DNA of 64,000 bases, taken from NCBI GenBank assembly GCA_031551635.1, contig JAVBNH010000006.1, positions 11,208-75,207 on the forward strand, read 5' to 3'. The position numbers and the translations under genes were made by a program. The notes beneath the pieces were generated by a model. The model saw nothing but the letters and a program-made list of their open reading frames with translations, had not been told where the DNA came from and did not search any database. Positions within the stretch are counted from its first letter, which is position 1, and every line of letters starts with the position of its first letter. This stretch comes from Oscillospiraceae bacterium (GTDB lineage Bacteria; Bacillota; Clostridia; Oscillospirales; Acutalibacteraceae). This document shows positions 1,372-64,000 of the stretch, piece after piece.

Positions 1372-1400
1372 GAGTAAAAACAAAAATATCGCTATTATTT

Positions 1401-1476
1401 TAGTACCTTAGTGGGCTGAAAGCTCAATAAAAACACGACTTGGGTTGTGGGCTTGGCAAGCCAAGCCCACGTTAGT
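1401..1476 (-). repeat. ~75-bp palindromic intergenic element, copy 1
   Basis: The reverse complement matches the consensus CTAACGTGGGCTTGGCTTGCCAAGCCCACAACCCAAGTCGTGTTTTTTATTGAGCTTTCAGCCCACTAAGGTACTAA. Confidence 0.9.
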
Positions 1477-1496
1477 TAAAATATTAATTGATGAAC

Positions 1497-6657: not shown

Positions 6658-6664
6658 TAATATT

Positions 6665-6730
6665 TAACATGGCTTGGCTTGCCAAGCCCACAACCCCAGT
6701 CGTGTTTTTATTGAGCATTCAGCCCAATAA
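6665..6730 (+). repeat. ~75-bp palindromic intergenic element, copy 2 (5' arm degenerate)
   Basis: taacatggcttggcttgccaagcccacaaccccagtcgtgtttttattgagcattcagcccaataa. Confidence 0.85.
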
Positions 6731-6790
6731 TATACTATATAAATATATGCGGCGAAAAGCCTTTTTTGCTAACTATTTATCACACCGGCG

Positions 6791-23183: not shown

Positions 23184-23232
23184 CTGGATTCTGGATTCTG
23201 GATTCTGGATTCTGGATGCTGGATTCTGGATA
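23184..23232 (+). repeat. heptamer array (CTGGATN)x7
   Basis: ctggatt x4, ctggatg, ctggatt, ctggata. Located between the nusA stop and the ylxR start. Confidence 0.95.
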
Positions 23233-23248
23233 TTCTATGAATGTTGCA

Positions 23249-28618: not shown

Positions 28619-28657
28619 ATGCTATCAAGCCTTTCATTAATATTTAAATGATACATT

Positions 28658-28685
28658 ATCTACAATCTAATGTCTAATATCTAAA
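28658..28685 (-). repeat. heptamer array, minus-sense TAGATAT TAGACAT TAGATTG TAGAT
   Basis: Covers the last codons and the TAG stop of the P-loop NTPase gene. Confidence 0.85.
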
Positions 28686-29350
28686 TTATTCCACGGCAGT
28701 TTTACTATTGTCTCCACCGGGAAGGGATTTTCAATTTTTTTCTCCAGCTCGCTCATTATTGCCTTGGGGACAGTTGTCAGCATGAGCGGCAGTCCTGTAA
28801 CCCTGCTGACTTCGCGGGCATATTCACAGCCTGATAAAATATCCGCGGCGGAAGTTTCCAGAGAAAGATGCGAATTATTAACAAGCGCGTTCATCGTAAG
28901 GTGCGAAGCCGCTTCAATCTCCCTCAAAAGCTCCAAAGCGTCAAGAGGGTTTTCAATCATTCGACGGAATTTATTTATAACAAAAATTCCGAGGTACCCG
29001 TCGTTTCCCTTTATATCATCGGCATACCGCCCGAGTGCCGTAGCTCCTGCGTCGTCCCCGCCGACATCAAAAAAAACATGGTCAGCGTCACCGCCGAAAA
29101 CCGAGGAAATCTCAGCGGGCAGATATGGCGCGTCAAGAGTGGTGTTTGCGCTGCCGGGCGAAATCAGGCGTATTCCGTTGCCCTCGAGCTCTCTGCGGTA
29201 ATCGGACGAACGAAAATAAGGGTTGACTATATCGAGGTCAACAAGGGTGACCCGCCTGCCCTGCCGCGCGAGCCCAAACGCCGCGTTAAGAGCGAAATTA
29301 GTCTTGCCCGTGCCGTAATGACCGCAGATTATATTATATTTCCGAAACAT
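28667..29350 (-). CDS. P-loop NTPase (MinD/ParA/CobQ-like)
   Basis: Deviant Walker A GHYGTGKT and the hydrophobic strand-Asp run VTLVDLDIVNP. SD GGGAGGG. The last 5 codons and the TAG stop lie in a heptamer array. Confidence 0.6.
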   Translation of the reverse strand: MFRKYNIICGHYGTGKTNFALNAAFGLARQGRRVTLVDLDIVNPYFRSSDYRRELEGNGIRLISPGSANTTLDAPYLPAEISSVFGGDADHVFFDVGGDDAGATALGRYADDIKGNDGYLGIFVINKFRRMIENPLDALELLREIEAASHLTMNALVNNSHLSLETSAADILSGCEYAREVSRVTGLPLMLTTVPKAIMSELEKKIENPFPVETIVKLPWNNLDIRH

Positions 29351-29396: not shown

Positions 29397-29417
29397 TGTA
29401 CAATGTACAATGTACAA
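29397..29417 (+). repeat. heptamer array (TGTACAA)x3
   Basis: Three perfect tandem units. Confidence 0.85.
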
Positions 29418-29578
29418 ATAGAGGTCGGGTAGGTAGAATTATGTGTGTTTTTACCTTTTCACCCGACTTGATTAAAGAAAATACATAATTTACCTGCCAT
29501 TAAATCAGCAAACTTATATTATTAAAATCATTCGCGAGCAGAATGTTAATAGCTACCGCAATTTAACTCGCGACCGCC

Positions 29579-29620
29579 ATCCAGCGTCTAGTATCCAGCA
29601 TCCAGTGTCTAAACTAGAAT
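29579..29620 (-). repeat. heptamer array, minus-sense CTAGTTT AGACA CTGGATG CTGGATA CTAGACG CTGGAT
   Basis: Six units with a 7-bp period, abutting the ispH-S1 terminator. Confidence 0.85.
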
Positions 29621-32523: not shown

Positions 32524-32551
32524 AATGCTTGATGCTGGATGCTAGATGCTG
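32524..32551 (+). repeat. heptamer array AATGCTT GATGCTG GATGCTA GATGCTG
   Basis: Contains CTGGATG/CTAGATG units and continues into GAAGAGGTCGCG. Confidence 0.8.
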
Positions 32552-32779
32552 GAAGAGGTCGCGTATTTATCGCTATTTGGAAATAAAATTATAGCTCGCG
32601 TGGTGATTATATACTGATCCGCATTAAAATAGCTTCTAACTGTCGTTCGCTAATCCTTTTGCACTCTTACAAAAGGGCTCACTCCATTAGAAGCTTTTTA
32701 ATGGAGGATAAGTATTAATATAATTGTCCGCGTCCAGAGAGTTTAATTAAAAGTTAATGCTGAATCGCGACATCTTCCA

Positions 32780-32807
32780 ATATCTAATATCTAAAATCTA
32801 ATATCTA
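32780..32807 (-). repeat. heptamer array, minus-sense (TAGATAT TAGATTT TAGATAT TAGATAT)
   Basis: The first TAG is the stop codon of CDS 32805..34058. Confidence 0.9.
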
Positions 32808-35557: not shown

Positions 35558-36772
35558 ATGCTTGTATTGGTCATTAATGCAGGAAGCTCCTCGCTTAAAT
35601 ATCAGCTTATTGATATGAACGGCGAGATTTGCATCGCAAAAGGTGTTTGCGAAAGAATCGGTCAGGACGGACGGATTGAAGCCAAAAATCTTGCGAACGG
35701 CACAGAATTTACCGCCGAAATCGACATGCCGAACCATACTGTCGCCTTCCTTGAGGTCAAAAAAGCCCTTACAGGCGGCGAGGCTAAGGTTCTTGACGAC
35801 CTCGCGGAGATAGCCGCTATCGGTCACCGTGTCGTTCAGGGCGGTTCTTTATTTAATCACAGCGTAATTATCGATGATTCGGTTCTCGCGGGAATTGAAG
35901 AGCTCTGTGACCTCGCGCCGCTGCATAATCCCGCCCACCTACAGGGCATGCGCGCCTGCATCGAGGTTTTCGGCAAAGATGTCCCCGAAATTGCGGTTTT
36001 CGACAACGCCTTCCACAGCACTATGCCGCCTGAGGCGTATATGTTCCCGATTCCTTATGAATATTATGAAAAATATAAAATCCGCCGCTATGGCTTCCAC
36101 GGCACTTCTCACCGCTGCGTCAGTACCCGCTGCGCCGAGCTTTACGGCAAACCCATTGAGGAGCTAAAAATTATCACCTGCCACCTTGGCAACGGCTCGT
36201 CAATCACCGCGGTTAAAAACGGCAGTGTCGTTGACACAAGCATGGGGCTGACCCCCCTCGACGGCTTCATCATGGGCACGAGAACCGGAGGAATCGACCC
36301 CTCTGTTGTGACTTATCTACAAGCCAAGGAAGGCTGGACGCCTGAGCAGACGGACAGCATTCTCAATAAAAAATCAGGCGTACTGGGCGTTTCAGGCATC
36401 TCGAACGATGACCGCGACGTCAAGGCGGCTTCCCTCTCCGGCAACCACCGCGCAAAGCTCGCCCGCGATATTCAATGGTATCAGATACGCAAGTATATCG
36501 GCAGCTATATAGCAGCGATGGAGGGCGTTGACGCTATTGTTTTCACCGGCGGAATCGGCGAAAACACCTTTGATTTACGCGCGGATGTCTGCACAAGACT
36601 CTCCTTCTTGGGCGTTGATTTTAACAACGAAATCAACGAAAAAACCGTCAGAGGTGCGGAGGCGGAAATCACAAACCCCGGTTCAAAAATCCGTGTTTTC
36701 GTCATTCCCACAAACGAAGAACTGATGATAGCTCGCGATACGCAAATGCTGGCGGCACAATTTAGATTTTAG
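35558..36772 (+). CDS. ackA: acetate kinase
   Basis: INAGSSSLKY, GFHGTSH and EELMIARDT. Start at ATG 35558 (MLVLVINAGSSS). The last codons and the TAG stop lie inside a heptamer array. Confidence 0.95.
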   Translation: MLVLVINAGSSSLKYQLIDMNGEICIAKGVCERIGQDGRIEAKNLANGTEFTAEIDMPNHTVAFLEVKKALTGGEAKVLDDLAEIAAIGHRVVQGGSLFNHSVIIDDSVLAGIEELCDLAPLHNPAHLQGMRACIEVFGKDVPEIAVFDNAFHSTMPPEAYMFPIPYEYYEKYKIRRYGFHGTSHRCVSTRCAELYGKPIEELKIITCHLGNGSSITAVKNGSVVDTSMGLTPLDGFIMGTRTGGIDPSVVTYLQAKEGWTPEQTDSILNKKSGVLGVSGISNDDRDVKAASLSGNHRAKLARDIQWYQIRKYIGSYIAAMEGVDAIVFTGGIGENTFDLRADVCTRLSFLGVDFNNEINEKTVRGAEAEITNPGSKIRVFVIPTNEELMIARDTQMLAAQFRF

Positions 36773-36797
36773 ATATTAGACTGTAGATTTTAGACTG
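36763..36797 (+). repeat. heptamer array TAGATTT TAGATAT TAGACTG TAGATTT TAGACTG
   Basis: The second TAG (36770..36772) is the ackA stop codon. Confidence 0.9.
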
Positions 36798-41422: not shown

Positions 41423-41450
41423 TAATGTCTAATGTCCAATGCAAATGTCA
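41423..41450 (+). repeat. heptamer array TAATGTC TAATGTC CAATGCA AATGTCA
   Basis: ATG occurs every 7 nt in the 5' leader of the radical SAM repair gene. Confidence 0.75.
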
Positions 41451-41505
41451 AATAAAAGCACAGCTAACAAAGCCAGGAAATATATCTGCTAAGGAAATCT
41501 TTATC

Positions 41506-43577: not shown

Positions 43578-43730
43578 GAGATGATTTAGTGGATAGTTAA
43601 ACTGTACCCCGTAGAATGGACACTGCTAAAAGTGGAAAAGCACAGGACATCCCCGAAAAACGGACAGAAAAAGTGGGTGAAAGAGTGCGGAAACCCAAAC
43701 GGTGGACAATATGGAAGTAAGCAAAAGTGA

Positions 43731-43807
43731 TTAGTACCTTAGTAGGCTGAAAGCTCAACAAAAAACAAGACTTGGGTTGTGGGCTTGGCAAGCCAAGCCC
43801 ACGTTAG
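43731..43807 (-). repeat. ~75-bp palindromic intergenic element, copy 3
   Basis: Near-identical to copy 1 and in the same orientation. Confidence 0.9.
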
Positions 43808-43923
43808 AATAAGCACTAATTGGGGCTCTGCCCCAAACCCCGAGGTTTAACGCGTTTGTTTCCGGGAAGCAGTAATACCATGCCGCATCATTTCGAATTA
43901 AACTTTGCACTATTAAAATTGTC

Positions 43924-51214: not shown

Positions 51215-51249
51215 TAGGGACTAGGGACAAGGAACTAGGGACTAGGAGT
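51215..51249 (+). repeat. heptamer array TAGGGAC TAGGGAC AAGGAAC TAGGGAC TAGGAGT
   Basis: Begins 8 nt upstream of the nagA start codon (minus-strand gene). Confidence 0.9.
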
Positions 51250-57328: not shown

Positions 57329-57343
57329 GCTTATACCCCTTCT

Positions 57344-57420
57344 CTAACGTTGGTAGGGCTTTGCCCTGCCCACAACCTAAGTCTTGTTTTTATTGAGCTT
57401 TCAGCCCACTAAGGTACTAA
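57344..57420 (+). repeat. ~75-bp palindromic intergenic element, copy 4 (variant first hairpin AGGGC-TTT-GCCCT)
   Basis: ctaacgttggtagggctttgccctgcccacaacctaagtcttgtttttattgagctttcagcccactaaggtactaa. Confidence 0.8.
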
Positions 57421-57534
57421 AAATTCTCCAAACGACTTTTTTATTTAAATATAATATATATATAACATCTTTTTTACTGAATATAATGACAAAATCAGAA
57501 ATAACGACAAATTTCGCATATTTTTTTTGCATTT

Positions 57535-58437: not shown

Positions 58438-58487
58438 ATGTGATGGTTAATGTTTCCTTCCGGCAAAATATGATTAAGATTTCTTAA

Positions 58488-58709
58488 CTAATGTGGGTTT
58501 GGCTTGCCAAGCCCACAACCCAAGTCGTGTCTTTTATTGAGCATTCGGCTCAATAAGGTACTAATGTGGGTTTGGCTTGCCAAGCCCACAACCCAAGTCG
58601 TGTTTTTTATTGAGCATTCGGCTCAATAAGGTACTAACGTGGGCTTGGCTTACCAAGCCCACAACCCAAGACTTGTTTTTTATTGAGCTTTCAGATCATT
58701 AAGGTATTA
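58488..58709 (+). repeat. three head-to-tail copies (73-76 bp each) of the palindromic element
   Basis: Units at 58488..58560, 58561..58633 and 58634..58709. The first two differ at a single position. Confidence 0.95.
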
Positions 58710-60903: not shown

Positions 60904-60929
60904 CCTTTCTTAAGAGAAATCAATGCGGA

Positions 60930-61015
60930 CTAACGTGGGCTTGGCTTGCCAAGCCCACAACCCAAGTAGTGTTTTTTATTGAGCTTTCAGCCCATTAAGG
61001 TACTAAAGGTACTAA
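60930..61015 (+). repeat. ~75-bp palindromic intergenic element, copy 8, with duplicated AGGTACTAA end
   Basis: ctaacgtgggcttggcttgccaagcccacaacccaagtagtgttttttattgagctttcagcccattaaggtactaaaggtactaa. The stop of the FIST-like CDS lies in the duplicated end. Confidence 0.9.
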
Positions 61016-62204: not shown

Positions 62205-62259
62205 AAAATCCAGTATCCAGCATCCAGTATCTAGCATCCAGTATCTAGCATCTAGAATA
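62205..62259 (-). repeat. heptamer array, minus-sense TAGATGC TAGATAC TGGATGC TAGATAC TGGATGC TGGATAC TGGATTT
   Basis: It is the inverted complement of the array at 63386..63502 and ends 15 nt upstream of the FIST-like gene ATG. Confidence 0.9.
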
Positions 62260-62395
62260 TTATAACTCACTTATAAATATATTTCAACCTGTTTTATAAT
62301 AATATAAAAAGATGTATTTTTTTCAAAAACATAAAAGTAATCAACAAAAAAACATGCCATTATTCAGCAACAAACAACAAAAAATAAAATAAGTC

Positions 62396-62424
62396 TTGAC
62401 GTGAAGAAATAAATCGGTTAGAAT
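62396..62424 (+). promoter_or_regulatory. promoter of lipoprotein gene
   Basis: TTGACG, 17 nt, TAGAAT. Confidence 0.5.
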
Positions 62425-62461: not shown

Positions 62462-63388
62462 ATGAAAAAAGCAATTTCTCTAGCAATGGCGCTTCTAGCT
62501 ATTATCACATTATTTACTTCCTGCGGCGGTGGAGGCGGCGAAGAAACGACAACCTCAGCCGAAACCACTACACTTGCCGCTACAACTCTCGCGACCGGCG
62601 ATACAACCGTTCCCGTTCCCGGCACCGGCGACACAACAACAGCCGTTTCCGCCACAGGCACTGCGACAACCGTTCCCGGCACAGGCACAGCGACTACCGC
62701 CGCGCCGACAACTGTTGCCTCAAACAACTTCGGCGCTCCGGTTGGCGGAACTGTCGAGCAGATTGTTCAGTATTATAATACAAAGGCAAACGCTATAAAG
62801 CAGGAAAAGAATTTCTCAGTTAAAAGAGTACAGGATCAGTCAATAAAATTTGATGAGCCCGCACTGGTTGCCGCTGTTTTTAACGCTCTTCTTAAAGACC
62901 TGACAAAGGTTTCCACCTCTGACGAAGTCTTCGCAAACGGTGTCGGAACAAAAAAAGAGGGCAATACACCCGCGAAATACTTTACAGTGAAGGATAAGGA
63001 CTATGTCAGCCAGCTGACTGCAAACGGCGTCAAGAGCGCTGAATGCAAGGTTGAGGGCGACAAGGTTGTTATTACAATACTCCTGAATGAAGAAACTTGC
63101 AACGCAAAGGTGGTTCCCCCAATCTACGGCTCATGCATAAACAATATCACAGAAGACATCATTAATGTCAAAGAAGCAAAGATTTCCGACGATGCACAGG
63201 CTACATATTCAGCAGGAAGCATGAAGCTCACAGTCGACGGCGCCTCCGGTAAAGCCACTCAGCTCATTACACATGCTGAAGGAAAAATTAAGGGTAATGT
63301 CGAAGCCGGTACAATCACTTATCTGCCTACAGTTAAAAACGCTGTTGTTTCAGGCAAATTCACAGAAACATTTGATATGACATACTAG
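62462..63388 (+). CDS. lipoprotein with Thr/Gly/Ala-rich linker
   Basis: Signal peptide plus lipobox LFTSC, SD GGTGAGGAG, and a repetitive TTVPGTGTATT linker. Confidence 0.7.
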   Translation: MKKAISLAMALLAIITLFTSCGGGGGEETTTSAETTTLAATTLATGDTTVPVPGTGDTTTAVSATGTATTVPGTGTATTAAPTTVASNNFGAPVGGTVEQIVQYYNTKANAIKQEKNFSVKRVQDQSIKFDEPALVAAVFNALLKDLTKVSTSDEVFANGVGTKKEGNTPAKYFTVKDKDYVSQLTANGVKSAECKVEGDKVVITILLNEETCNAKVVPPIYGSCINNITEDIINVKEAKISDDAQATYSAGSMKLTVDGASGKATQLITHAEGKIKGNVEAGTITYLPTVKNAVVSGKFTETFDMTY

Positions 63389-63502
63389 ATTCTAGATGCT
63401 AGATTCTAGATGCTAGATTCTAGACGCTAGATACTAGATGCTAGATTCTAGACGCTAGATTCTAGACGCTAGATACTAGCGCTAGATACTAGCGCTAGCT
63501 GC
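63386..63502 (+). repeat. 17-unit heptamer array (TAGAYNC)n
   Basis: tagattc tagatgc tagattc tagatgc tagattc tagacgc tagatac tagatgc tagattc tagacgc tagattc tagacgc tagatac tagcgc tagatac tagcgc tagctgc. The first TAG is the lipoprotein stop codon. Confidence 0.97.
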
Positions 63503-63512
63503 TGTATGAGTA

Positions 63513-63548
63513 AGCCCCGGTAGTCTTTTACGATTACCGGGGTTTTTA
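63513..63548 (+). terminator. rho-independent terminator after lipoprotein gene plus heptamer array
   Basis: CCCCGGTA-loop-TACCGGGG followed by TTTTT. Confidence 0.75.
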
Positions 63549-63569
63549 AGTATTTTTTTTTGTTTTATT

Positions 63570-64000
63570 TTAGAAATTAACAGCAATTTCAACTCCGGCG
63601 TTTACATCGTCAACAGCTATCCAAGTGATGTTGTTTTCGGTGAAATAGCCCTGAGCCATTGAGGTGAGGTCTGCCATCGAAGCAGCCTTTGTCAGCTCTG
63701 TGCCGGCGATTTTTACGCTTGCCGCTGTTTTATCGTTATAAATTCTGAAGAGCAGTGAGCGTTCGCTTGCGGTTGATTTAACGGTCATTTCTCCGCCGTC
63801 CTTGGTGTAGGAAAGCATTGTGCCGTCCTTGCCCTCTTCGTAGAGGCCAAATTTCTTCGAGCCGTCCTCGGGATAAATCATGACGGTTGTGTAATCAGCC
63901 GAAAGCTCGCTGCCGAAGCCGTTAGCGCCGTTGACAACATTCATCGGGACTATCGCGCCCTTGCGGATATAAGCCGGGAACTCGTCAAGCGGGGTCTCGA
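63570..64000 (-). CDS. C-terminal part of a GH31-like glycoside hydrolase (gene continues beyond window end)
   Basis: The frame stays open to the window edge. Upstream residues ETPLDEFPAYIRKGAIVP resemble the GH31 motif PLDxIPvFVRaGsIiP. Confidence 0.5.
   Translation of the reverse strand, partial: ETPLDEFPAYIRKGAIVPMNVVNGANGFGSELSADYTTVMIYPEDGSKKFGLYEEGKDGTMLSYTKDGGEMTVKSTASERSLLFRIYNDKTAASVKIAGTELTKAASMADLTSMAQGYFTENNITWIAVDDVNAGVEIAVNF

Follow-up and report, generated by a model that had tools for sequence, protein, structure and literature searches.

A 17-unit CTAGAYN array downstream of a lipoprotein-like gene is the longest copy of a dispersed heptamer family in 64 kb of Oscillospiraceae DNA

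We analysed a 64,000-nucleotide stretch of DNA from an Oscillospiraceae bacterium of the Acutalibacteraceae (GenBank assembly GCA_031551635.1, contig JAVBNH010000006.1, positions 11,208 to 75,207 of the forward strand), referred to below as the window, with a focus on a tandem heptanucleotide array that directly follows a gene for a lipoprotein-like protein. The gene occupies positions 62462..63388 of the + strand in the list of open reading frames (ORFs), encodes 308 amino acids and is preceded by a predicted promoter-like site, TTGACG-17-TAGAAT, at 62396..62424 (+ strand; 10/12 matches in a consensus scan). Its product carries a signal peptide, ...LFTSC, with the cysteine placed after the signal peptide, and a threonine-rich linker; a Pfam scan of the protein returned no family. 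The TAG stop codon of this gene (63386..63388, + strand) is also the opening triplet of the array (63386..63502, + strand), as established from the ORF list and the division of the array into units, in agreement with the original prediction, which had been made from the sequence. The array ends 10 nt before the hairpin of an intrinsic terminator (63513..63561, + strand), which the sequence and an RNA fold resolve into a 13-bp hairpin at 63513-63544 followed by T5 and T9 runs, and which separates the lipoprotein-like gene from the convergent ORF that faces it at 63570..63944 on the - strand. Since the array follows the stop codon and precedes the first intrinsic terminator, a position in the 3' untranslated region (3' UTR) is the natural reading, and it is plausible from this anatomy that the array is transcribed as the 3' UTR of the lipoprotein gene. 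The placement proposed earlier, about 10 nt before the terminator and within the 3' UTR, is thus supported; in related genomes, too, the equivalent arrays precede terminator hairpins.

The tract proved to be a genuine tandem array, with CTAGAYN as its heptamer. Splitting its 117 bp at each TAG yields 17 head-to-tail units, fifteen of 7 bp and two of 6 bp, and Tandem Repeats Finder reports 17.3 copies with a period of 7 at positions 63385-63503, so that the unit count given by the original prediction is confirmed by both procedures, and the two short units by the splitting. Tandem Repeats Finder also detects a super-period of 14 bp (8.3 copies, 93% matches, score 172), and the units follow one another in an ordered, non-trivial succession; both 6-bp units read TAGCGC, the final unit reads TAGCTGC, and the 3' end is degenerating. 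Each of the six frames contains 5-6 stop codons within the array, and the strict phasing and the all-frame stops described earlier are therefore real. CTAG does occur at the unit junctions, as had been said, and the array accounts for 17 of the 53 CTAG sites of the whole window; the accompanying claim that this tetranucleotide is avoided stands only in part, the avoidance outside the arrays being mild (observed/expected 0.79). The five-unit pattern TRGAYNN matches 17 times in the window, versus 0.00 expected from shuffles. With the Rfam 15 covariance models, the window gave no match at the gathering score and none of relevance at E <= 1; no relevant Rfam match was obtained for three loci of relatives, and a tRNA and tmRNA search found none.

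The C-terminal ...TY is common to all five homologues of the lipoprotein-like protein, indicating that the array begins at the natural stop and that the protein is not truncated. In the homologues P0002 and P0003, TAA occupies the equivalent stop codon position and no array follows it; for the nearest homologue (60% identity, from a sister sample), the stop is TAA and the array is absent. A heptamer array of another type, (TTAYTTR)x4-5, lies beside a same-sample paralogue of the lipoprotein gene (locus L314, 4034-4062), where it abuts the stop codon of the convergent gene, 3' of a plain terminator.

Ten period-7 arrays were found in the window, nine of them built from YTRGAYN units and one from TAGGGAC, with 3-4, 4, 4, 4.6, 5, 5, 5, 7, 7 and 17 units; under strict scoring, four arrays are retained at period 7 and none at periods 4-6 and 8-12. 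Their neighbours are ordinary core genes (nusA, ispH-rpsA, cmk and ackA). Four arrays contain a stop codon and a fifth lies 81 nt past one, while the TAG stop codons located inside arrays make up four of the nine in the window. Relative to the transcript, six arrays are forward and four reverse. These data show that the array behind the lipoprotein gene is the longest copy of a dispersed YTRGAYN family whose members normally have 4-5 units or ~30 nt, and that the window arrays fill short transcribed spacers adjoining the hairpins, stop codons and ribosome-binding sites that belong to housekeeping genes.

The sister arrays illustrate each of these settings. On the + strand, (TGGATTC)x7 at 23185..23233 fills the spacer from the stop codon of nusA (identified by a NusA Pfam match) to the ribosome-binding site of ylxR, antisense to the operon. 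Four units at 28656..28683 (- strand) provide, with their third TAG, the stop codon of a CbiA/ParA-like gene (28667..29350, - strand), and five units at 29577..29611 (- strand) follow the ispH-rpsA stop at the distance of 81 nt mentioned above, directly after a hairpin and T-run, and are themselves followed by GGTCGCGAG. Two further arrays form a convergent pair: the left arm, at 32529..32552 (+ strand), has 3-4 units ending in TGGAAGA and lies 42 nt upstream of cmk, which is on the opposite strand; the right arm, at 32780..32807 (- strand), has four units plus TGGAAGA, its first TAG being the stop codon of an HI0933-like gene. At 36763..36797 (+ strand) the second TAG of five units is the stop codon of the acetate kinase gene. 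A degenerate array of TTGACAT/TAGACAT units, followed by AAGAAGGTCGCGC, lies at 41424..41453 (- strand), where a radical-SAM gene of the opposite strand has its 5' end, and the TAGGGAC array (4.6 units with an altered middle unit; 51215..51246, + strand) ends 8 nt upstream of the start of an amidohydrolase (nagA-like) gene, likewise on the opposite strand; a Shine-Dalgarno sequence is not apparent in the interval from this array to the nagA-like start. Finally, seven units of TAGATGC/TGGATAC at 62206..62254 (- strand) are inverted with respect to the 17-unit array. They begin 4 nt past the -10 box of a promoter, TTGAAA-17-TATAAT at 62287..62259 (- strand; 11/12 matches in a consensus scan), and reach the G-rich ribosome-binding site of a gene whose FIST domains were recognized by Pfam. 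The arrays at 62206-62254 and 63386-63502 form an inverted repeat of 62 nt at 81% complementarity, which gives the window two convergent or inverted pairs (32529/32780 and 62206/63386).

Several observations accompany these pairs. The lipoprotein cassette and the FIST promoter are together bracketed by the inverted arrays 62206-62254 and 63386-63502. The convergent arrays near cmk are separated by a 225-nt insert (32554-32779), at the boundaries of which the inner ends of the pair form an inverted GGAAGAKGTCGCG; within it, on the + strand at ~32631-32705, a nested stem AGCTTCTAA...TTAGAAGCT is followed by TTTTT and could be a small RNA or a terminator, with no Rfam match. GGTCGCG, which adjoins several arrays, was considered as a signature of the family and rejected, since nine were found in the window versus 6.4 expected.

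Relatives were collected through the IspH-S1 fusion protein, whose best matches came from metagenome-assembled genomes of Acutalibacteraceae and other Oscillospirales of animal guts, at identities of at most 62%; they comprise 80 loci with 1.46 Mb of flanking DNA. The search of related genomes suggested by the original prediction did recover period-7 arrays, usually between stop codon and terminator: 30 arrays have at least four copies, versus at most 5 for any other period. Their copy number does not decay but peaks sharply at 4.4-4.7 (31-33 nt), a length which, read in phase, corresponds to five A[AG]T cores with four free bases between them. Unit sequences vary by species and locus (AATTGAA, AATGCAG, AATGAAT, AATTCCG, AATTGCG), with three unit types within the single genome of L178, and in most unit families the altered unit is the middle one (AAT AAT AGT AAT AAT). 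As a rule, the stop codon is followed within 5-30 nt by the array, then by a mini-hairpin, a stretch rich in A/T and finally a longer T-run hairpin. When five such regions were aligned, the pairing of the mini-hairpin was seen to be preserved through two-sided changes, and the terminator stem to vary from UA to UG only, a change that is neutral for the sense strand but disruptive for its complement; this indicates that the array of the relatives is part of a 3'-UTR RNA. One array is found directly 5' of a ribosome-binding site in seven species. At L202 (14263-14294), a 32-nt array of the AATTCCG type constitutes the whole intercistronic spacer and abuts the ribosome-binding site of a conserved 700-aa gene; in a comparison with L164, L168 and L191 (near 14400), this array matches that of L164 at 31/32 positions, whereas no alignment of the upstream flank is possible. 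The peaked length, the conserved core and the common altered middle core point to selection on a defined five-site module. Selection for an unstructured spacer that is stable and ~30 nt long, or a ligand with five sites, could explain these features.

Some of the relatives' arrays are parts of larger palindromic structures. Some form perfect 32-bp inverted pairs around a hairpin, as at L178 (16896/17063). The combination of array, mini-hairpin and conserved ATGATAGAACTT hairpin is repeated at unrelated loci (L178 16895-17094, 5486-5517 and 21803-21888; L159 5467-5498; L200 820-844), and was also seen as a palindrome of ~200 bp with perfect arms. Read on the reverse strand, the mini-hairpins are GCGAAGC, GCGTAGC or CCGCAGG, a C-GNA-G form that is the extra-stable DNA mini-hairpin. 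The TATAAT-like boxes next to the arrays of the relatives were examined as outward promoters and discarded: no acceptable -35 element is present in either direction, and the hairpin with its T-run reads as a terminator.

Dispersed arrays of this kind have been published, contrary to the earlier statement that no such element had been described (PMC4692102, PMC4679880). Rehm et al. (2015) reported dispersed intergenic heptamer arrays of GGGAATC in Xanthomonas and GGGGAYT in Nostoc, with ~185 (GGGANTN)n arrays per Xanthomonas genome (PMC4692102). The arrays of both genera number about 180 per genome, have a mode of four units within a range of 2-26, are 89-93% intergenic, lie on average 28 nt from the upstream ORF, in some cases over stop codons, and include 70-75 convergent inverted pairs; those of Xanthomonas were not linked to surface genes or mobile elements, and no function was proven for them (PMC4692102). 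MacGregor (2015) described TAACTGA repeats in marine Beggiatoaceae, cyanobacteria and Bacteroidetes, mostly in 2-6 copies with rare long arrays, and proposed an unidentified RNA-binding partner (S1, Csp or CsrA) (PMC4679880). As summarised in the same two articles, heptamers are over-represented among long simple repeats in prokaryotes, and slippage with a 7-nt polymerase footprint has been proposed (via PMC4679880 and PMC4692102).

The window family resembles the Xanthomonas and Nostoc arrays in its 7-nt unit with a conserved core and free positions, in its overlap with stop codons, its inverted pairs and its ordinary metabolic neighbours, and in being mostly of about four units with rare long outliers, up to 26 there and 17 here. 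It differs in that their units, being rich in G, were interpreted as forming G-quadruplexes whereas YTRGAYN has no G-tracts, in that its host belongs to the Clostridia/Oscillospirales, and in that the 17-unit copy is palindromic through CTAG. The TAACTGA repeats are likewise intergenic heptamers with stop codons in the unit, beside translation signals, but they represent a single fixed heptamer in one orientation, mostly just 5' of start codons, whereas the window arrays mostly begin at or past stop codons and have a degenerate unit. The cyanobacterial STRR sequences and the general excess of heptanucleotide repeats (Mrazek 2007, as summarised in PMC4679880 and PMC4692102) agree with our case in that, among the long simple repeats of many prokaryotes, tandem heptamers are the most common; these were described as a mutational class and lack the five-core module, the altered middle unit and the neighbouring hairpin. 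As the 7-nt units, the period-7 excess, the position near ORF ends, the mode of 4-5 units and the inverted pairs were all found here, we file the window arrays with the dispersed intergenic heptamer families; judged by these sequence habits, the YTRGAYN family is of the same kind as those of Xanthomonas, Nostoc and Beggiatoaceae. The record of such families goes back to the cyanobacterial STRR sequences, no function having been established, and the present case adds a Firmicutes lineage with the same array habits though its unit cannot form a G-quadruplex, which weakens the quadruplex explanation for Xanthomonas and Nostoc.

We then compared the predicted folding of the arrays. As single-stranded DNA (ssDNA), the 17-unit array folds at -27.3 kcal/mol (z score -4.9) and six sister arrays at ~0 kcal/mol (z scores of -0.4 to +1.0), the latter being no more structured than shuffles. 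The RNA of the long array together with the terminator reaches -81 kcal/mol (z score -8.3), CUAG pairing with CUAG in a long imperfect hairpin. Alone among the window arrays, it is composed purely of palindromic CTAG units, and an interrupting unit is absent from it. Being the only pure-CTAG, self-folding array, and the nearest homologue of its gene having no array, it would be a recent runaway expansion, by hairpin-assisted slippage, of an ordinary family member. The best explanation overall, to which we give a probability of about 0.55, is that the array is a slippage-expanded copy of a dispersed heptamer family of the published type. By this explanation, heptamer arrays would arise and turn over through slipped-strand mispairing, a mechanism proposed in the literature; ordinary copies, which are kept to some five cores, the middle unit often being altered, and which are unstructured as single strands, may serve as spacer or landing segments; and the self-complementary, uninterrupted CTAG form, by folding as ssDNA or RNA, would favour slippage and a runaway to 17 units. 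The effect on the lipoprotein gene would be modest, namely a translation stop in every frame, a long imperfect hairpin stacked ahead of the terminator and a 3' UTR of mutable length, and the practical consequence for this gene is probably small. The five-core length of the relatives, their altered middle unit, the compensatory changes in their hairpins and the array shared across species suggest selection and experimental tractability.

Two sets of general functions were tried on the family and set aside. An all-frame stop trap does not suit it as a general role, many units having no stop triplet (TGGATTC, AATGCAG, AATTCCG, AGGAAAC), and CsrA (GGA), Rho (YC), Hfq, a CodY half-site (AATTTTC) and complementarity to the 3' tail of 16S rRNA each fit only some unit types.

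As an independent check, the Logan assembly of run SRR23967709, the single sequencing run in which the organism was matched, was compared with the window. The arrays starting at 32529, 32780 and 36763 were recovered with 0 mismatches, and the contig across array 51215 shows 2 differences from the window in 11,845 positions. A further contig covers 62216-63414 and breaks inside both arrays that flank the lipoprotein gene, recovering just the first 26 nt of the 17-unit array, so the unit number of 17 is without independent verification; the breaks fit repeated k-mers, unit-number heterogeneity or inversion equally well. That the unit number rests on one assembly, while the independent one breaks inside the array, is one of several points that weigh against slippage expansion as the explanation. 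The census of the family in this genome is that of the 64-kb window, and the role of ordinary arrays as spacer or landing segments is one that we only infer. Moreover, the peaked length, the conserved core with free spacers and the shared altered middle core of the relatives would not be predicted by neutral slippage, which would also leave the conserved L202/L164 array unexplained.

These same features could be accounted for if the arrays were platforms for an oligomeric binder of single-stranded RNA (ssRNA), or of ssDNA, reading one core per 7 nt, with five sites per ordinary array. Beside a terminator hairpin or a ribosome-binding site, such a binder would tune termination, 3'-end stability or translation, and the array of 17 units would serve it as a sponge or as a site of high capacity. 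Such a reading would make sense of five cores at a fixed 7-nt spacing, of a core that is conserved (A[AG]T in the relatives, TRGAY in the window) between free spacers, of a middle core altered in most independent unit families, of ordinary arrays that are unstructured and abut ribosome-binding sites or hairpins, and of one array conserved across species when its flank is not; HutP, which reads XAG with 4-nt spacers, offers a precedent. However, unit sequences differ between species and within L178, so one protein would have to tolerate much variation, the orientation relative to the transcript is mixed, the 17-unit array is predicted to be base-paired and not single-stranded, and no candidate protein was seen in the window ORFs scanned. 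We hold this reading as tentative and on balance unlikely, and judge in the same way its more specific form, by which an Oscillospirales cis-module (five cores, a distinct central core, a position 5' of a terminator hairpin or ribosome-binding site) would dock a multimeric ssRNA-binding protein genome-wide. If it were true, that protein would be a global counterpart of the HutP/TRAP-type triplet readers, the Xanthomonas, Nostoc and Beggiatoaceae families would be analogous platforms and not slippage debris, and the array of 17 units would represent a hyper-expanded site, with a possible role in titrating the factor. The analogy drawn in the original prediction was narrower, and would make the array the binding site of an antiterminator of the HutP or TRAP family. 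HutP reads the A and G of XAG specifically and prefers 4-nt spacers; UAG-N4 is the exact spacing of the array, which has UAG in all 17 units, 15 of them with a 4-nt spacer. A HutP site, though, consists of two clusters of three XAG joined by a 12-17-nt linker around the terminator of the leader of a single operon, whereas here a single continuous tract follows its gene on the 3' side, opposite a convergent gene, and the downstream terminator holds a single UAG and no second XAG cluster. The strict reading of A and G is also at odds with the rest of the family, the sister arrays being all-UGG (23185-23233) or mixed, and the cores of the relatives A[AG]U. TRAP sites contain 9-11 (G/U)AG triplets with 2-3-nt spacers, versus spacers of 4 nt in 15 units and 3 nt in two units here. 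The protein check proposed earlier was carried out on the window, where no HutP (PF09021) or TRAP domain was found in the ~40 ORFs scanned. Given the UGG of the sister array, the other cores of the relatives, the lack of a second site and the location outside a leader, the HutP/TRAP analogy is not supported, and we consider it scarcely credible.

The array could also act as DNA, either as a heptad operator for a cooperative protein of the ribbon-helix-helix type or as a substrate for recombination or slippage. The omega/ParB protein of pSM19035 binds 7-10 contiguous 7-bp repeats, WATCACW, in direct or inverted orientation, at least 4 being needed, with one ribbon-helix-helix dimer per heptad, and the plasmid-borne parS arrays overlap promoters. 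The 7-bp period and at least 4 contiguous repeats are shared by the 17-unit array, but its units do not match WATCACW, and it lies off promoters, at chromosomal gene ends, as do most arrays of the window. As a recombination substrate, the inverted arrays at 62206-62254 and 63386-63502 would mediate inversion or length-dependent phase variation of the lipoprotein and FIST genes, in keeping with their bracketing of the cassette over 62 nt at 81% and with the Logan breaks inside both. A 7-bp repeat lies between the promoter and the start of hmw1A/hmw2A of Haemophilus influenzae, and its unit number changes expression (PMC8262952, PMC12721329); the left array, which separates a strong -10 box from the ribosome-binding site of the FIST gene, has a position matching that of the repeat that grades hmw1A expression (PMC12721329). 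However, hmw1A is a surface-adhesin contingency locus with the repeat upstream of the gene, whereas the 17-unit array is downstream of its gene, past the stop codon and thus outside the position of a contingency repeat. The same arrays also occur beside housekeeping genes, where phase variation makes little sense, repeated k-mers explain the contig breaks equally well, and neither a ribbon-helix-helix nor a recombinase gene was seen in the window ORFs scanned; overall we regard action at the DNA level as improbable. REP/BIME and REPIN sequences of proteobacteria are extragenic repeats dispersed among operon junctions and the 3' ends of genes, often in inverted pairs that form long hairpins, and they affect the stability of mRNA 3' ends, REP being a single imperfect palindrome mobilised by the RAYT transposase. 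The arrays share with them the placement at gene 3' ends and the inverted pairs forming long hairpins, but are tandem heptamers. They might nevertheless be arms or remnants of REPIN- or MITE-like mobile palindromes, the long array being a solo arm that was later expanded. Near-identical arrays with the ATGATAGAACTT hairpin at unrelated loci of one relative genome, the perfect 32-bp inverted pair of L178, the inverted GGAAGAKGTCGCG at the inner ends of the 32529/32780 pair and soil and freshwater metagenome hairpins with stems of 4-5 heptamers speak for such an origin. Against it, about half of the arrays stand alone and nevertheless keep a precise length, and there is conservation of solo arrays at orthologous sites; GGTCGCG shows no enrichment in the window, where neither a transposase nor a RAYT-like gene was seen, and the Xanthomonas arrays were reported without association to mobile elements (PMC4692102), which makes this origin doubtful. 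As for an assembly artefact affecting the long array or its length, a 117-bp repeat is near the short-read limit and the Logan contig stops 26 nt into it; nevertheless, the independent assembly agrees exactly with the window at both array borders, it recovers three shorter sister arrays with 0 mismatches, its 51215 contig has 2 over 11.8 kb, and the unit sequence is internally ordered and non-trivial, so that an artefact appears very improbable.

Metagenomes were scanned with a pattern of four TRGAYNN units followed by TGGAAGA, which gave 109 contigs with a G+C content of 0.26 to 0.70; since the core is imposed by the search pattern, the scan shows the breadth of the architecture and not the conservation of the core. 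Many of the matches, from soil and freshwater, are long hairpins with stems of 4-5 heptamers around a G+C-rich hairpin. Five soil loci (L219, L222, L230, L252 and L276; G+C 0.59-0.67) have stems of 4-5 TRGACGY heptamers, a G+C-rich hairpin and a T-run, an Oscillospirales-like architecture in unrelated high-G+C organisms. At L229 and L308, a heptamer-array hairpin constitutes the entire spacer between two tRNA genes, and is more stable on the tRNA-sense strand (-33.2 versus -24.6 kcal/mol). One phage species carries an invariant (CTGGATT)5 in a conserved context (L002, L010, L014 and ~20 further IMG/VR loci among the matches listed). A scan of a viral collection with five TRGAYNN units proved too generic, this one phage species being dominant among the matches listed, and no inference was drawn from it.

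Two other kinds of repeat were noticed in the window. (TGTACAA)x3 at 29397-29417 overlaps a promoter-like site upstream of the CbiA/ParA-like gene; with its palindromic TGTACA cores it looks operator-like, and it has no relation to the YTRGAYN arrays. The other is a second family of dispersed repeats, ~73-77 nt long, with eight copies, all intergenic: 1393-1484 (-), 6662-6745 (+), 43730-43822 (-), 57343-57422 (+), 58487-58706 (three tandem copies) and 60929-61007 (+). Its copies contain two hairpins (GTGGGCTTGGC..GCCAAGCCCAC and TTGAGC..GCTCAA) around a T-run, and the family looks REP- or terminator-like.

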